This document shows positions 7,254 through 54,203 of a stretch of 64,000 bases of DNA, piece after piece. The stretch is from a virus (taxonomy: Duplodnaviria; Caudoviricetes). The stretch's first letter is position 1. Every line of letters starts with the position of its first letter. The notes under the pieces are model-generated. The model saw nothing but the letters and a program-made list of their open reading frames with translations. It searched no databases and was not told the origin of the DNA. Made by a program: the position numbers and the translations under genes. The stretch lies in the IMG/VR virus record IMGVR_UViG_3300016486_001578. One strand, written 5' to 3'.

Positions 7254-8343
7254 ATGTCAAATTGGAAAGTATCTAAAGAAAATATTGAGTTATTTGTTCA
7301 CACAAATGCTGATGGTCTAGATTTGGGCAAAGTTGGATCTTATCAAGTTGTCGTTCAGAAAGGACTTTATAATGATGGTGATGAAGTTATATTCGCACCT
7401 GAAAAATCTGTATTAAGTGGTCAAATAAAATTAGAATTTGAAAATTATTTGGCCGGACCAAATTAGAGACAGAGTAAAGGGAGTTAGGCTTAGGGGAGAA
7501 ATATCTTCTGGTATAATTATACCTAAACATTTAGTTCCGGATTTTGAAGATATAGAAGTTGGTGTTGATGTTTCTGAAATCTTGGGAATTCACAAATATG
7601 AACCACCAATTCCAGAGGAACTACTTGGCGATGTTAGTATAATTGAAATGAATAACATAGGAACTCATGATTGTGAGCAAGTCGGTATTTATATAAATGA
7701 TCTTATAAAGGGAGAAAGGGTTGTAATTTCTGAGAAATTACACGGAACTCAAATAGTAATGGTTCATAATATAGAAACTGATGAAACTATTTTATCATCA
7801 AAGGGTCTTTTAAAAACCGGATTATCAATAAATGAATCAGATTCCAATAAATATTGGATAGCCGCTAACAATGTTGATTTAGTAAATCTTATTAAATCAA
7901 ATTTTAAAAGTGGAGTTGTTCAAATTTTTGCCGAGCTTATACCAATTCAACCTGGTTATGGTTATGGACAAGAAGAACCAACTATTAGAATATTTGATAT
8001 AAGGTTAAATTCCGAATCAATTCCATATGACAAAGTACCGACAGATTTTTCCAAAATCTGGGTACCGATTATTTACGATGGTACTTTAAATCTCGAAGAG
8101 AAAGAGGTAATTCTTCATGAAGATGAAGAGAAAGGAATCCGTAAAGTTAAAATCAATAATGTCCTTCCAAAAGAGATTATTAGTTTTAGCAAAGGTATGG
8201 AATTGGTTTCTGGAAAAGGATTACACATCAAAGAAGGGGTTGTAATAAGTCCTTATATTGATAGGTTTGCTATGGATGGCACTAGATTGCGATTGAAAGT
8301 AATAAATCCAAAATACAAAGAGACTGGTGATGAAATAAATTAA
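7254..8343 (+). CDS. RNA ligase, DRB0094/Rnl2-like family (frameshift near 7460)
   Basis: N-terminal HTNAD.L...VVVQKG; EKLHG adenylation motif; FAE, FDI, EGVV and KVINPKY motifs; two overlapping ORFs. Confidence 0.85.
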
Positions 8344-16273: not shown

Positions 16274-16307
16274 AAATATAAAATATAAAATTATAAAAAC
16301 CCTCTGA
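16251..16307 (+). promoter_or_regulatory. Antiterminator pairing
   Basis: TCAGAGAGTTATGTATAATT (16251-70) can pair with AATTATAAAAACCCTCTGA (16289-16307), which includes the 5' arm of the terminator. Confidence 0.7.
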
Positions 16308-16327
16308 GAAATCAGAGGGTTTTTTTT
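16295..16327 (+). terminator. Attenuator terminator upstream of the first tRNA
   Basis: AAAAACCCTCTGA-GAAA-TCAGAGGG-TTTTTTTT. Confidence 0.85.
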
Positions 16328-16492: not shown

Positions 16493-16520
16493 CAAGAAGG
16501 AATTCTATAAATTCAAAAAC

Positions 16521-16596
16521 GGGGTGACATGTTCCAAGGCTTTGGCGAGTTTGGTTTGCAACCAGACTGTGGTGGGTTCGATACCCATTCGCTCCA
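16521..16596 (+). tRNA. tRNA-Ala(TGC) copy 2, atypical D arm
   Basis: GGGGTGA/TCGCTCC with G3-U70; loop TTTGCAA; T arm GTGGG-TTCGATA-CCCAT. Confidence 0.7.
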
Positions 16597-16626
16597 CAAA
16601 AAGAAGGAATTCTATAAATTCAATAA

Positions 16627-16700: not shown

Positions 16701-16732
16701 CAAAAAAAGAAGGAATTCTATAAATTCAACAT

Positions 16733-16870: not shown

Positions 16871-17329
16871 ATGATGAAAAAAATAAAGAATACTAAAAAA
16901 GTCACTGATAAAAAAATAAAAGAAATTAAAAAATTATATGAAAAACTAAAAAGTTCTAGAAAAGTAGCCGAGAAACTAAATATTTCAAAAACAACAGTAC
17001 TAAAATATACATCAACAAAAAAGATAATAGTTGATGATGAGACAAAAAAGAAAAGAGTCAAATCTGTTATAAGTTGGAGAAAAAGGAAGAAAAGAGAATT
17101 AGTAGAATACAAAGGAGGTAAATGTGAAATATGTGATTACAATAAATCACTTAGATCTCTAGATTTTCACCACAAAAATCCAAAAGAGAAGGATTTTGGA
17201 ATATCAGGAAAATCGTATTCTTTTGATAGATTAAAAAAAGAGGTGGATAAATGTGTGCTTGTTTGTAGTAATTGTCACGGAGAAATACATGATGATATAG
17301 AGCAATTTGGTTATTCAAATAAGATATAA
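16871..17329 (+). CDS. HNH homing endonuclease with N-terminal HTH
   Basis: CEIC...DFHH...LVCSNCHGEIH. Confidence 0.85.
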   Translation: MMKKIKNTKKVTDKKIKEIKKLYEKLKSSRKVAEKLNISKTTVLKYTSTKKIIVDDETKKKRVKSVISWRKRKKRELVEYKGGKCEICDYNKSLRSLDFHHKNPKEKDFGISGKSYSFDRLKKEVDKCVLVCSNCHGEIHDDIEQFGYSNKI

Positions 17330-17343
17330 GGAGGAAATTAAAA

Positions 17344-17814
17344 ATGGAAGATTTTAAAAAAGAAAGTGGAAAAGTTATTTATGATGTAAAAGAGTATATA
17401 TTGGATATTTTAAAAAACAATAAAGATACTAAAATACACATAGGAACTGATAGCCAAAAAAGGAAAGGAAAGTGGATACACTTTGCGACAGTTATATCTT
17501 TTAGATATGGAACAAGGGGAGCACATTATATTTATGCTTTCAGAAAAGAAGTAATGTTCAAAACTGTTGTACAAAGGTTGATGAGGGAAATTGAATTAAC
17601 CGTTGATTTATACCTTTGGTTAAAAGATGTGGTAGGAATAACTGCAAATGTCTTGGAAGCAGATGTTAATGAAGACAAAAAGTGGAAAAGTAATTTAGTA
17701 TATAATGCCGCTACGGGGTGGTTGATGGGAGTATCAGCACCAGAAACAGAAGTTTTGGCTAAGCCAGATCTTTTGGTAGCGGTTCGAGCAGCGAATCATT
17801 TATGTAATAGATGA
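17344..17814 (+). CDS. Ribonuclease H-like YkuK-family protein
   Basis: HIGTDSQ...FATVI...GAHYIY...RLMRE...ADVN...S...KP...AANHL. Confidence 0.8.
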   Translation: MEDFKKESGKVIYDVKEYILDILKNNKDTKIHIGTDSQKRKGKWIHFATVISFRYGTRGAHYIYAFRKEVMFKTVVQRLMREIELTVDLYLWLKDVVGITANVLEADVNEDKKWKSNLVYNAATGWLMGVSAPETEVLAKPDLLVAVRAANHLCNR

Positions 17815-17885: not shown

Positions 17886-17971
17886 GCGCCTTTAGCTCAG
17901 TTGGTATCCGAGAGGTGAAGAGCATCCGCCTTTTAAGCGGAGGGTCATAGGTTCGAGTCCTATAAGGCGCA
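17886..17971 (+). tRNA. tRNA-Lys(TTT) with enlarged D loop
   Basis: GCGCCTT/AAGGCGC; TCCGC-CTTTTAA-GCGGA; D loop contains extra TATCCGAGAGGTG. Confidence 0.85.
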
Positions 17972-18001
17972 CAAAATGAAAAAGAAAGAAACATTGAGTA
18001 T

Positions 18002-18082
18002 ACTCACATACCGTCCTAACCTGATAAGTTAGAGAAACGTAATTGGTTGTTGAAAATGTCGGTTCGATTCCGTCTGTGAGTA
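18002..18082 (+). tRNA. Non-canonical tRNA-Ile(GAT)-like RNA with displaced D arm
   Basis: ACTCACA/TGTGAGT-A acceptor; CTAAC-CTGATAA-GTTAG only 7 nt after the acceptor strand; D-loop-like AATTGG 3' of the anticodon arm; T loop TTCGATT. Confidence 0.6.
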
Positions 18083-18153
18083 CAAAGTCAAAAAATTAAC
18101 CATTGTGGTGAATAAAAGGCTCATAAGTTTTAATATATAAAAATAAAAAACTT

Positions 18154-18741
18154 ATGAAAACAAGAGATAAAGTAATAGAATTAAAAAAAATAGGAAAAAG
18201 TTATGACGAAATAAAAAAAGAATTAAATATATCAAAATCGACAATTAGTTATCACTGTAAGAGATATGGCCTAGATTACATAGGACCAACGAAAAAATTA
18301 GACGAATTAACTATAAAAGAAATAAAAAAATTCTGCGAAAGTAATACAATAAAGGAAGCCTCGGAAAAATTCAAGGTCTCTATAAGCTCAATAAAAAGAT
18401 ATAAAAGAAAAAAAGAAAAAATATCTTTAACAGATATAGAGAAGAAAAATAAACAAGTAACAAGAATAAGTAATTGGAGAAGAAAAATAAAACTTAAAGC
18501 ACTCGAATATAAGGGAGGTAAGTGTGAAAAATGTGGATATAATAGGTGTGTATCATCTATGGATTTTCATCATTTAGATCCAAATGAAAAAGATTTTGGA
18601 TTAAGCGGTAGTATAAAAAGTTGGGAAATAACAAAAAAGGAATTGGATAAGTGTATTTTGGTTTGTAAAAATTGTCACGGAGAAATACATAATAAAATTG
18701 AAGAAGAAAAGAGAGAAAAAAGATTAAAAAAATATAAATAA
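18154..18741 (+). CDS. HNH homing endonuclease with HTH domains (paralog of 16871)
   Basis: YKGGKCEKC...DFHH...LVCKNCHGEIH. Confidence 0.85.
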   Translation: MKTRDKVIELKKIGKSYDEIKKELNISKSTISYHCKRYGLDYIGPTKKLDELTIKEIKKFCESNTIKEASEKFKVSISSIKRYKRKKEKISLTDIEKKNKQVTRISNWRRKIKLKALEYKGGKCEKCGYNRCVSSMDFHHLDPNEKDFGLSGSIKSWEITKKELDKCILVCKNCHGEIHNKIEEEKREKRLKKYK

Positions 18742-18821: not shown

Positions 18822-18905
18822 GCTCCCGTGGTGTAATTGGTAACATCCTTCCCTTACATGGAAGAGACGAGAAGTAAAACATAGGTTCGAATCCTATCGG
18901 GAGTA
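18822..18905 (+). tRNA. tRNA-Val(TAC) copy 1 with 16-nt variable region
   Basis: GCTCCCG/CGGGAGT; CTTCC-CTTACAT-GGAAG; variable region AGACGAGAAGTAAAAC. Confidence 0.8.
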
Positions 18906-18918
18906 CAAAAATAAAAAT

Positions 18919-19084: not shown

Positions 19085-19171
19085 GCGGGTGTAGCTCAGT
19101 TGGTTATCCGAGAGGTGTAGAGCGTCAGTCTTCCAAACTGAGGGCCGTGGGTTCGAGTCCCACCATCCGCT
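19085..19171 (+). tRNA. tRNA-Gly(TCC) copy 1 with enlarged D loop
   Basis: GCGGGTG/CATCCGC-T; TCAGT-CTTCCAA-ACTGA; same TATCCGAGAGGTG insertion as tRNA-Lys. Confidence 0.85.
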
Positions 19172-19231
19172 CAAAAAATATAAGCCATAGGAGAATCTCG
19201 GATTTAATATATAATAAAATTAATGACGTAA

Positions 19232-19896
19232 ATGAAGTGGCAAAAAGGAGAAGAAATAGAATTATTAGAATTATTAAAAGAAGGTAAAAATTATATTGAA
19301 ATAGAAGAAATACTAAACAGGAGTAAGAACTCCATAAGGAATAAATCTCAAAAAATGGGATATTCCTTACAATCATTTAAGATACAAAATAAAAAGTGTA
19401 TATTTTGTAAGAAAAATTTTAATTATAATTGTAGAGACGAAAAAGAAAGGAGTAAAATATTTTGTAATAGCTCATGTTCCGCTAGTTATAATAACAAATT
19501 AAGAAATAAGAAAGGGAAAAGTGTGAGATATGTGATAAGAAAACTAATAATATAAAAACATGTAGTATGATTTGTTATCAAGAATTATTATTCTTGGAAG
19601 GGTTGGAAAAATTTAATAAGGGTTATTTAATAAATAACCGAGCAATTAAAAAATATCTAATATATTTATATGAAGAAAAGTGCTCTAATTGTGGATTAGG
19701 AAATTATTGGGATAACAAATTCTTATCAATACAGGTTGATCATATTGATGGTAATTCCGATAATAACTCAAAAGATAATGTTAGGCTATTATGTCCAAAT
19801 TGCCATTCACAAACACCAACATTTGGTATAAAGGGAGGAAACAAAAACAAAAAAGATAATAGAAATATATATCGAAAAAAATATAGACAAAAATGA
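19232..19896 (+). CDS. HNH endonuclease (split into two ORFs by frameshift)
   Basis: N-terminal HTH and FCNSSC; C-terminal CSNC...VDHIDGNSDNN...LCPNCHSQT. Confidence 0.75.
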
Positions 19897-52493: not shown

Positions 52494-54203
52494 TTAACCA
52501 ACCCATTCCCATTTCTTTAAACCACAATCCCATATTCTATAAGAATTTATTTCATTGTACATTATCTCTCTTTCTGATTTGTTTTTATCATAGCCCATTT
52601 TTATTAGTCTAGATTTTCTATATTTAGATTTATGAACACGCTCATTACCAATGACCCATTTATAGTTTACATCTGATATACCAACCATATTAAATCCTAA
52701 TTTTTCATATAGTCCACCATTAAATAATGATAAATCCGAATAGGAAATTATTTTAGATGTGTTGTTATTTCTTATGAAATGTTTTAGAAGCCTAGATGAT
52801 CCACCAATTACACTAGTATTTAAAATATTTGAAAACCTCGAAAGCTCATATGAATCACACCCCACCTCTTCTCTATTCTTACCAAAGCACATCAAGCTAA
52901 CCAATTCATTATTATAATATAAGCCAATTTTTATTTTAGACTTATTATCACCTTGTATATGATTTTTATTTAAAAATTTACTGGATTCCTCTTTCTTAAC
53001 TTCTCTAATCTCGCACTTTCTAGCGTATATTTTGTTTTCGATTTTATGTAGTTTGTTTTTTATTATTGATTTTACTATATCATTTTTTAACTTCCAATCA
53101 TCCTCCCATATATGTATTAGTTCAATTCCAATCGATTCACATAATTTTGTCTTTTTTATATGGTAATTTTTGTCTTTATTTAACTCTGAGTGCCAATATA
53201 ACCCATTGAATTCAAATGCTAGATTAATATCAGGTAAATAAATATCTAATTCTTTACCATTTAATAATTTTCTATCCGATCTTATTATCTCATCATTATA
53301 TATCTCATTTATAAAATTAAACAAGGAAACTTCTTGACCAGATATGTGTTTTTTTAATGGGTTACAATTTGTGCATATAATAGTTTCTTGTTTGTGTCTT
53401 ATTTGTAGATGCTCTCTATGTATTTTGAATTCACTTTGACAATCATTACATTTAAATTTAATTTTCCTATTTTCATAATTTATATCAATTAAATCTATAT
53501 TAATATTATCTATTTTTAGAAGAACACTCTCATATAATGAATTTTCTTTTGATATTTTTGTTTTAATTGTGCCCTTTTTATGTATTTCTTTGTTGCTCCA
53601 AGGGTGGTGATATCCATACCTTTCAAGTGAAGTTTTTTTATAACTTTTATTCCATGATTCTATATTCATCTTAAATGATTCTATTCTTTTATTTATTATT
53701 TCATCAACCTGATTAACATTATCCACTCCATATTTCTCCTTTACAGTATTTAATCTTTTATCCTTTATCTTCTGTTTTTCTACCTTTGTCCTATTTTGAT
53801 ATTTTTTTGATATTTTTTTCTTTATATCCTTATTCATGGAAGCATGTTTATCTCCATATTTTAATATATTTGAATCTTCTTTCTTTTTCTTTATTTTAGG
53901 ATCTAAACCAACACACCTATTTGAGCAGTAATTAAGATAGCCAATTTTTGAGTTCTTAAATTTGACTTTTTTTTCACAAAAGTCATTTTTACACAAAACG
54001 ATACTATTTATATTACTATAACATAGATATACTTTTTCTTTGAATGTCAGTTCGTCTATTAATGAATAACCATCTATTATATACTTATAATCATTTTTAA
54101 AATTATTTAACACATATTTTTCGGAAGACATTTTTCCGGATTTATTATTGAACTTATATTCTTCTATAAATTTATCACTTAACATAGTTTGATATTTTAA
54201 CAT
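52494..54203 (-). CDS. Putative Hef-like homing endonuclease with KYG repeats
   Basis: YCSNRC; KYG..N repeats; ELDIYLPDINLAFEFNGLYWH nuclease motif; IHIWEDDW; ARKC; WDCG. Confidence 0.75.
   Translation of the reverse strand: MLKYQTMLSDKFIEEYKFNNKSGKMSSEKYVLNNFKNDYKYIIDGYSLIDELTFKEKVYLCYSNINSIVLCKNDFCEKKVKFKNSKIGYLNYCSNRCVGLDPKIKKKKEDSNILKYGDKHASMNKDIKKKISKKYQNRTKVEKQKIKDKRLNTVKEKYGVDNVNQVDEIINKRIESFKMNIESWNKSYKKTSLERYGYHHPWSNKEIHKKGTIKTKISKENSLYESVLLKIDNINIDLIDINYENRKIKFKCNDCQSEFKIHREHLQIRHKQETIICTNCNPLKKHISGQEVSLFNFINEIYNDEIIRSDRKLLNGKELDIYLPDINLAFEFNGLYWHSELNKDKNYHIKKTKLCESIGIELIHIWEDDWKLKNDIVKSIIKNKLHKIENKIYARKCEIREVKKEESSKFLNKNHIQGDNKSKIKIGLYYNNELVSLMCFGKNREEVGCDSYELSRFSNILNTSVIGGSSRLLKHFIRNNNTSKIISYSDLSLFNGGLYEKLGFNMVGISDVNYKWVIGNERVHKSKYRKSRLIKMGYDKNKSEREIMYNEINSYRIWDCGLKKWEWVG

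Follow-up and report, generated by a model that had tools for sequence, protein, structure and literature searches.

A phage tRNA-Ile(GAU) candidate with its D-loop module 3′ of the anticodon arm, and a family of Ile-type and Arg-type relatives

Outside organelles, transfer RNAs (tRNAs) are assumed to share one nesting of arms, the cloverleaf, and gene finders, the Rfam models and annotation pipelines all have that nesting built into them. Here we describe a gene that departs from it. In a stretch of 64,000 nucleotides (nt) from a virus of the class Caudoviricetes (IMG/VR record IMGVR_UViG_3300016486_001578), which we call the window throughout, positions 18002-18082 of the plus strand hold an 81-base candidate tRNA gene that has the anticodon GAU and carries no annotation. 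The place where a D arm would be expected holds only 7 nt (18009-18015), with no D hairpin between position 9 and the anticodon arm, and a 3′ connector of 25 nt (18033-18057) carries a D-loop motif instead, just as a first-pass annotation made from the letters alone had described. The perfect 7-bp acceptor stem and the perfect anticodon arm reported there are both present on direct reading; the T arm it listed has its consensus loop, and the 5-bp stem beneath that loop contains one U-U mismatch. The anticodon loop keeps U33, GAU, A37 and A38. The 8-mer at 18040-18047 recurs unchanged as the D loop of a tRNA-Val nearby (18834-18841), and the 3′ trailer begins CAAA, as it does in most of the neighbouring tRNAs.

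The standard tRNA finders pass over this gene. ARAGORN called 11 tRNAs in the window and the rewired gene was not among them; permissive, intron and mitochondrial settings gave no plus-strand call at the locus, and the non-default settings produced only one spurious call on the minus strand. The Rfam tRNA model RF00005, whose gathering threshold is 29 bits, had no match at the locus even at E ≤ 10.

Relatives were reached by other routes. The DUF458 protein encoded just upstream has one relative (59% identity), on a 1.8-kb contig, L017, and the same contig carries the rewired gene at 1400-1480. Compared with the window copy, the L017 copy has two anticodon-stem pairs swapped on both sides, each a double compensatory change, and one T-stem pair swapped, with the U-U mismatch repaired; its acceptor stem, 7-nt linker and entire 25-nt connector are those of the window. 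The first-pass annotation had argued that the gene is no pseudogene, and this is borne out by a relative in which the gene persists while its anticodon and T stems have changed in compensating ways. Identical copies, without variation, occur in several samples. A pattern tolerant of stem changes matched 32 metagenome loci, 20 of which are true members and all of those exactly 81 nt long; together with the window and L017 they make 16 distinct Ile-type sequences with widely different acceptor stems, which were aligned without gaps (alignment A1). A second alignment, A3, holds 27 distinct sequences fitted to a covariance model, R1, and 27 is also the total of distinct members drawn from metagenomes, huge phages and cultured phages. 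Since A3 was fitted to the model, counts from the unfitted A1 are the cleaner evidence. Family members score 38-102 bits with R1, against at most 30 bits for canonical tRNAs. Such a model, built on homologues, was the check proposed in the first-pass annotation, and the relatives with compensatory changes were there to be found.

What these relatives have in common is a short helix that encloses the anticodon arm and stands for the D stem. A1 columns 11-13, in the linker, pair with columns 36-38, the triplet just 5′ of the D-loop motif, in 16 of 16 members: the first pair is C-G in all 16, the next is C-G in 8, A-U in 6 and G-C in 2, and the last is C-G in 8, G-C in 6 and U-A in 2. Over the 27 distinct sequences of A3 this D-stem equivalent is 100% paired, and its two variable pairs take three types (C-G, G-C, A-U) and five types (C-G, G-C, A-U, U-A, U-G), respectively. 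Further helix types are CGA/UCG, CGC/GCG, CGU/GCG with a U-G pair, and CUC/GAG, the last in phage Felix O1 and L085; the sole exception is L087, which lies outside A3 and in which a clean 3-bp helix cannot be drawn by eye. Given the ungapped A1, RNAalifold predicted de novo exactly the rewired fold; the covariation term contributed −7.3 kcal/mol. For the structure as a whole, 95.7-96.8% of the cells are paired, as opposed to 59-65% in shuffles and 30-42% with slid partners (A1 alone: 95.7% versus 65% shuffled and 30-40% slid), and compensatory changes are present at 18 of the 20 pairs. Pairing between the linker and this triplet had been offered in the first-pass annotation as the alternative to a hairpin within the connector, and it is the alternative that the family upholds. 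A locus conserved in this way, with compensatory changes in 27 distinct relatives, is far beyond chance. Two further pairings are less regular. Positions 18036 and 18050 (A1 columns 35 and 49) covary, as A-U in 7 members and C-G in 9, which is weak covariation because there are only two clades and possibly a single event; the bases at 18011 and 18040 form A-U in 9 of 16 members and G-U in 1 of 16, and in the window copy the former is C and unpaired. A reading that places the GAU hairpin inside an oversized D loop was also tried, and was rejected because the following 17 nt, judged by eye, form no anticodon arm.

The equivalents of U8, A9, A14 and the GG pair of the D loop are invariant in 28 of 28 aligned members. 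The 15-48 equivalent (the base two after U13 together with the last base of the tail) is A-U in 26 members and G-C in 2, a third G-C case being L088, and the orthologous pair L006 and L005 differs by exactly this double change. These conserved nucleotides are the partners of known tertiary pairs, and from their sequence we infer that they form the canonical contacts. The T loop is canonical, and U33 and a purine at 37 are retained in the anticodon loops. The tail is 12 to 18 nt long, depending on the member; the shortest tails leave three or four bases between positions 20 and 48 (L038:697-772, L033:3750-3826), which fits the idea that those two positions are close in space. A73 is present in every Ile-type member. 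All 20 Ile-type members of A3 have U next to GG, and L088 (anticodon UAU, outside A3) has C there. In 5 of 6 Arg members with UCU or UCG anticodons the base after GG is A, and in Pseudomonas phage ventosus an A follows a GGG run; in all, every UCU or UCG member has its A behind a GG or GGG run. In bacteria, A73 and U20 are identity determinants for isoleucyl-tRNA synthetase (IleRS), and A20 for arginyl-tRNA synthetase (ArgRS) (PMC9976931). The identity nucleotides of the family thus track the anticodon and match, at the level of sequence, the determinants of these two enzymes. The parts of the gene and the members with other anticodons are collected in the table.

Table. Parts of the rewired gene in the window, and family members with anticodons other than GAU as identified by model R1
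Feature	Location	Strand	Remarks
Acceptor stem, 5′ strand (positions 1-7)	18002-18008	+	7 of 7 pairs with 18075-18081; all 7 covary across the family
U8 and A9 equivalents	18009-18010	+	Invariant, 28 of 28 aligned members
Variable base, 13-22-like position	18011	+	May pair with U at 18040
D-stem equivalent, 5′ strand (place of canonical 23-25)	18012-18014	+	Partner 18037-18039
Single junction base, position-26-like	18015	+	C, U or G in the family
Anticodon arm, 5-bp stem and 7-nt loop	18016-18032	+	Perfect stem; GAU at 18023-18025; all 5 pairs covary
Four-base junction, anticodon stem to 3′ strand of D-stem equivalent	18033-18036	+	Third base A, invariant in A1
D-stem equivalent, 3′ strand (place of canonical 10-12)	18037-18039	+	Partner 18012-18014
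D-loop module: equivalents of U13, A14, A15, two U, G18 G19, U20	18040-18047	+	Invariant in 16 Ile-type members
Tail, D-loop module to T stem	18048-18057	+	Last base, 18057, is the 48 equivalent
T arm, canonical T loop	18058-18074	+	4 of 5 stem pairs covary
Acceptor stem, 3′ strand, and discriminator A (18082)	18075-18082	+	CCA not encoded
UAU members	LR756502:390979-391058, L038:697-772, L088		
CAU member	L033:3750-3826		
UCU members	L044, L030, L005, L006, L085, L087, Pseudomonas phage ventosus		
UCG member	LR745206:344211-344291		
ACG members	L051, L086		

The family is one of phages. Ile-type copies were found with the family model in the uncultured huge-phage records LR745206 and LR756502, and across the family the Ile anticodons GAU, UAU and CAU are all represented. 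Most members sit in tRNA arrays, of up to 15 tRNAs; L051 is without one. Some arrays hold two rewired tRNAs, either both of Ile type, with CAU and GAU side by side (L033:3750-3914) or GAU and UAU (L038:222-772), or as Ile and Arg pairs, GAU with Arg UCU in L044:37-1223 and Arg UCU with GAU in L030:778-1030. Among cultured phages, Felix O1 has an unannotated Arg(UCU) member (NC_005282:25951-26029; locus L082:552-630), which BLASTN finds in 256 cultured-phage records, almost always without annotation and on rare occasions under the labels tRNA-Undet or tRNA-OTHER. This Arg member overlaps the first 27 nt of the annotated HNH endonuclease open reading frame (ORF) ORF45, and given the overlap the start codon of ORF45 has probably been mis-set. 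Pseudomonas phage ventosus has another Arg(UCU) member (MG018930:11272-11348), and the Felix O1-type and ventosus genes score 41-61 bits with R1. An Ile-type copy was not found in cultured phages by megablast or blastn of the locus, or by BLASTN with two Ile-type members; the L025 copy, searched against cultured phages, aligned with nothing but the T-arm end of the Arg gene of ventosus, and through this match the ventosus member came to light. When the locus was compared by blastn with two related huge phages, only the tRNA-Lys matched, and their rewired members needed the covariance model to be seen. In IMG/VR, neither pattern scans nor protein-anchored scans gave a homologue, and six 18-mer matches are what chance would yield.

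Cellular genomes gave very little. The Ile-type pattern had 8 matches in 185,579 species genomes, one of them real and lying on a contig of a metagenome-assembled genome (MAG) with a phage-like tRNA array, and the rewired tRNA was found in 0 of 151 genomes of one phylum, with four control genomes also negative. That MAG, labelled Deltaproteobacteria (G005), has five R1 matches in all, on five contigs (C445, C24, C230, C196, C251); this bin probably contains contigs of one or more large phages. The family is phage-restricted, and rare or not found in the cellular genomes searched.

How could a chain threaded in this order still make a tRNA? Directly behind the 3′ strand of the helix come U, A, R, then one to three bases, GG and N, the order of a 5′ D-stem strand and the positions 13-20 after it; on this mapping the 5′ strand of the helix would stand for positions 23-25 and the next base for 26. 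In the layout that we propose, the chain coming from U8-A9 would enter directly into 18012-18014, normally the 3′ strand of the D stem; the anticodon arm would form next, then the other D-stem strand, 18037-18039, and at once after it the complete D-loop module (A14, R15, G18G19, U20), followed by a tail whose final base, next to the T stem, is the 48 equivalent. The 3-bp helix would enclose the anticodon arm and stack on it, so that helix and anticodon stem would make a limb of about the usual length of D stem plus anticodon stem, and the D-loop module could still meet U8, position 48 and the T loop. The net change would be that segment 10-21 has moved 3′ of segment 22-47, with three new joins (9 to 23, 45 to 10 and 21 to 48), each between residues that already touch in a canonical tRNA. 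The contacts behind these joins are the 9-[12-23] triple, the 45-[10-25] triple, and A21 beside the 8-14 and 15-48 layer. The RNA would be made within the phage tRNA array, processed like its neighbours and given its CCA; IleRS would charge it, and the charged tRNA would read AUU and AUC.

Taken together, the conservation and covariation speak for the view already put forward in the first-pass annotation, of a functional tRNA-Ile(GAU) whose altered connectivity would keep the parts of the L-shape. Established here are the secondary structure, the conservation of the tertiary-pair nucleotides, the identity nucleotides and the distribution of the family; from these we infer the three-dimensional fold, the processing, the charging and the decoding. 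We consider it likely that the window gene works as a tRNA-Ile(GAU) in which the D/anticodon core is internally permuted, that it reads AUU and AUC, and that it belongs to a phage-restricted Ile/Arg family that includes the Felix O1 gene. If so, the cloverleaf is probably not the sole tRNA layout used in bacterial cells.

Several observations weigh against this interpretation. The enclosing helix is just 3 bp long, and the T stem of the window copy has the mismatch already mentioned. Folded alone, the window copy has a minimum free energy (MFE) structure that is not tRNA-like, with a shuffle z-score of −0.9, and nearest-neighbour energies put the rewired fold at −15.1 kcal/mol, a fold with the D-like hairpin at −17.0 and the MFE at −17.1; in the commonest subgroup (L025, L050, L055) the MFE structure is the rewired fold plus a fourth pair. 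The argument in three dimensions is based on textbook tRNA contacts. The ACG member L051 is the sole misfit among the identity nucleotides, having U and not A after GG, along with U73 and an encoded CCA. Finally, in many related arrays a canonical tRNA-Ile(GAU) accompanies the rewired one (for example L034:387-461 and L025:606-680), with stem sequences unrelated to those of the rewired copy. The first-pass annotation had taken the lack of any other GAU reader as a sign of function, and within the 64-kb window, itself part of a 560-kb contig, ARAGORN indeed finds no canonical tRNA-Ile; the related arrays make this a weak argument. With a canonical tRNA-Ile(GAU) alongside, the rewired copy is not needed simply for AUU and AUC, and would be kept for something beyond simple supply. 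It is a fair guess, made for tRNA-targeting nucleases in the first-pass annotation as well, that the rewired copy might escape host enzymes which recognise the D arm or the core. The fuller version of that idea, that these are working non-cloverleaf tRNAs accepted by IleRS or ArgRS, EF-Tu and ribosomes, and that the re-threading is an adaptation hiding Ile and Arg copies from host enzymes that cleave or disable tRNAs, would explain why rewired copies are kept beside canonical ones; we put it forward tentatively, as a doubtful but specific possibility.

The frequent presence of a canonical tRNA-Ile(GAU) next door, which decoding alone fails to explain, could equally be read to mean that the RNA is not used in translation at all: a conserved tRNA-like RNA of the same fold might, as a decoy or sponge, occupy a host nuclease that attacks tRNAs, a synthetase or a modification enzyme, or it might be a processing or regulatory element of the array, and the phage RNA ligase of the tRNA-repair type hints that the cutting of tRNAs by the host matters to the phage. 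We think this rather unlikely, since the aminoacylation determinants track the anticodon (A73 and, bar one copy, U20 with Ile; A20 with Arg UCU and UCG), U33, purine 37 and the canonical T loop are kept, and the members jointly cover GAU, UAU and CAU, like a decoding set. The energies quoted above slightly prefer a D-armless tRNA with a long variable region folding as a D-arm-like hairpin, 18036-18039 with 18048-18051. This was the pairing that the first-pass annotation named before its alternative, and it can be drawn both in the window copy and in L017; it fails in the family, where only 40.6% of its cells pair over the 16 members, where it is impossible in the largest subgroup, and where the very bases it requires are those that covary with the 5′ linker, so we regard it as very unlikely.

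A decaying pseudogene, rearranged in an array full of homing endonucleases, would account for a gene that tRNA finders miss, that has HNH genes on its flanks and a mismatch in its T stem. It would hardly account for 16 distinct Ile-type sequences, taken from many samples, that are all 81 nt long, for compensatory changes at 18 of 20 pairs or for invariant single-stranded core bases, and it strikes us as highly improbable. The last alternative leaves the final tRNA canonical and makes only the gene permuted, its transcript being cut and rejoined into a cloverleaf. Permuted tRNA genes are known from a red alga, and an RNA ligase is among the products of the phage. In the permuted genes of the Cyanidioschyzon type, however, the 3′ half lies upstream and the acceptor order is reversed, whereas the rewired gene has its acceptor halves in the normal order, so that circularisation would be unable to restore the canonical order and two internal cuts and two joins would be needed; the junctions show no conserved processing motif, and the covarying helix makes sense only in the unrearranged chain. 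We give this explanation next to no credence.

The preferred reading, a working tRNA with a permuted core, can be set beside systems already known. With a canonical tRNA-Ile(GAU) (class I, RF00005) the rewired gene shares the 7-bp acceptor stem, A73, the GAU loop, the T arm and the setting in phage arrays, as well as the core of U8, A14, R15-Y48, G18G19 and U20; it differs in that its D-stem strands flank the anticodon arm and its D loop is 3′ of it. The Arg(UCU) genes of Felix O1 and ventosus share the architecture, from U8-A9 through the 3-bp helix enclosing the anticodon arm to the D-loop module, the tail and the T arm, and differ in the A after GG, a shorter tail, an encoded CCA and their cultured enterobacterial or Pseudomonas hosts. 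Class II tRNAs (Leu, Ser, Tyr) likewise have a long stretch between the anticodon and T arms, and ARAGORN forces some members (L030, L046, L051) into that shape, but class II tRNAs keep a D arm and a variable hairpin; the rewired family has no D hairpin, and in it the stretch forms no conserved hairpin. The closest analogue in structure is the D-armless human mitochondrial tRNA-Ser(GCU), in which, as seen by cryo-electron microscopy, the linker pairs with a vestigial variable loop and stacks on the anticodon stem, extending it (PMC9427863). A linker paired with the 3′ connector is common to both; gone from the mitochondrial tRNA are its D loop, tertiary core and canonical T loop (PMC9427863), whereas the phage family retains a canonical T loop, the D-loop module and the partners for 8-14 and 15-48, and the one is organellar while the other lies in a phage genome and would use machinery of the bacterial type. 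The allo-tRNAs, with their novel 8/4 and 9/3 cloverleaves, have altered stem lengths and unaltered nesting (PMC5389517); like the rewired family they are non-standard and come mainly from metagenomes, but in the rewired family it is the nesting itself that is altered. A 2020 review of non-canonical tRNAs describes altered stem lengths and mentions neither phages nor permutation (PMC7609411), and we found no description of the present layout in the literature.

The unusual point is therefore that the nesting differs while every universal core nucleotide stays. If the reading is right, the order of the chain in the tRNA core would not be essential for translation of the bacterial type, and nature would have supplied a means of asking which features of a tRNA are really recognised by synthetases, RNase P, the CCA-adding enzyme, EF-Tu and the ribosome. 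It is suggestive that the family is confined to Ile and Arg, as both are charged by class Ia enzymes, which read the D loop. The tRNA repertoires of phages would also have been under-counted, the Felix O1 copy, unannotated in nearly all of its 256 records, being an example. Felix O1 and Pseudomonas phage ventosus are carriers in culture, which makes the question accessible to experiment.

The window is contained in a metagenomic contig of 560,843 bp (FUWD013429777.1), and its closest relatives in the phage collection are uncultured huge phages of 630-735 kb. Its G+C content is 28%, and it carries phage hallmark genes, its products including a tail sheath, a DNA polymerase and several HNH homing endonucleases; by a rough count, its long ORFs use about 26 ATT and 5 ATC codons per 1000. 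The rewired gene lies 29 nt downstream of tRNA-Lys, on the same strand as the tRNA array. A strong terminator at 16295-16324 precedes the array, no terminator was found between tRNA-Lys and the rewired gene, and a promoter scan gave hits at chance level only. Four HNH-type homing endonuclease genes are present (16871-17329, 18154-18741, 19567-19896 and 52494-54203), three of them within the array, and an inverted repeat at about 18121-18156 spans the start codon of the one directly downstream of the rewired tRNA. The DUF458, or RNase H-like (PF04308), gene also lies within the array, at 17344-17814 in the window and at L017:443-1054; it has homologues in tRNA-rich Vibrio and cyanobacterial phages, one of them annotated as a putative ribonuclease, and its product is a possible candidate for a tRNA-processing enzyme. 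The gene for the RNA ligase (PF09414) is at 7438-8343, about 10 kb upstream of the array. In phage T4, ligases of the PF09414 type repair tRNA cut by host anticodon nucleases.

Other members of the array have peculiarities of their own. One and the same spacer, of about 23 nt, recurs from one tRNA gene to the next (16495-16520, 16600-16625 and 16707-16730, and also L017:377-400). The tRNA-Lys(UUU) at 17886-17972 and the tRNA-Gly(UCC) at 19085-19172 are otherwise perfect cloverleaves with the same D-loop insertion of about 13 nt, which could form a 2-bp stem with a GAGA cap; ARAGORN miscalls both as tRNA-Leu, Rfam gives the Lys copy 28.1 bits, just below threshold, and L017 has a plain tRNA-Lys at the equivalent place. 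The tRNA-Val(UAC) at 18822-18906 has an unpaired, A/G-rich variable region of about 17 nt, and tRNA-Val(UAC) genes of 85-87 nt recur in the related arrays L028, L030, L043 and L050; L054 has a 91-nt tRNA-Pro with a long variable region. Lastly, a tRNA-Ala(UGC)-like gene at 16523-16598 is unusual in its D region, where a 4-bp stem carries a loop of 4 nt. The gene scores only 19.7 bits with Rfam and is called by ARAGORN in permissive mode only; it is kept at L017:300-374, with a U-G pair of the acceptor stem changed to G-U.
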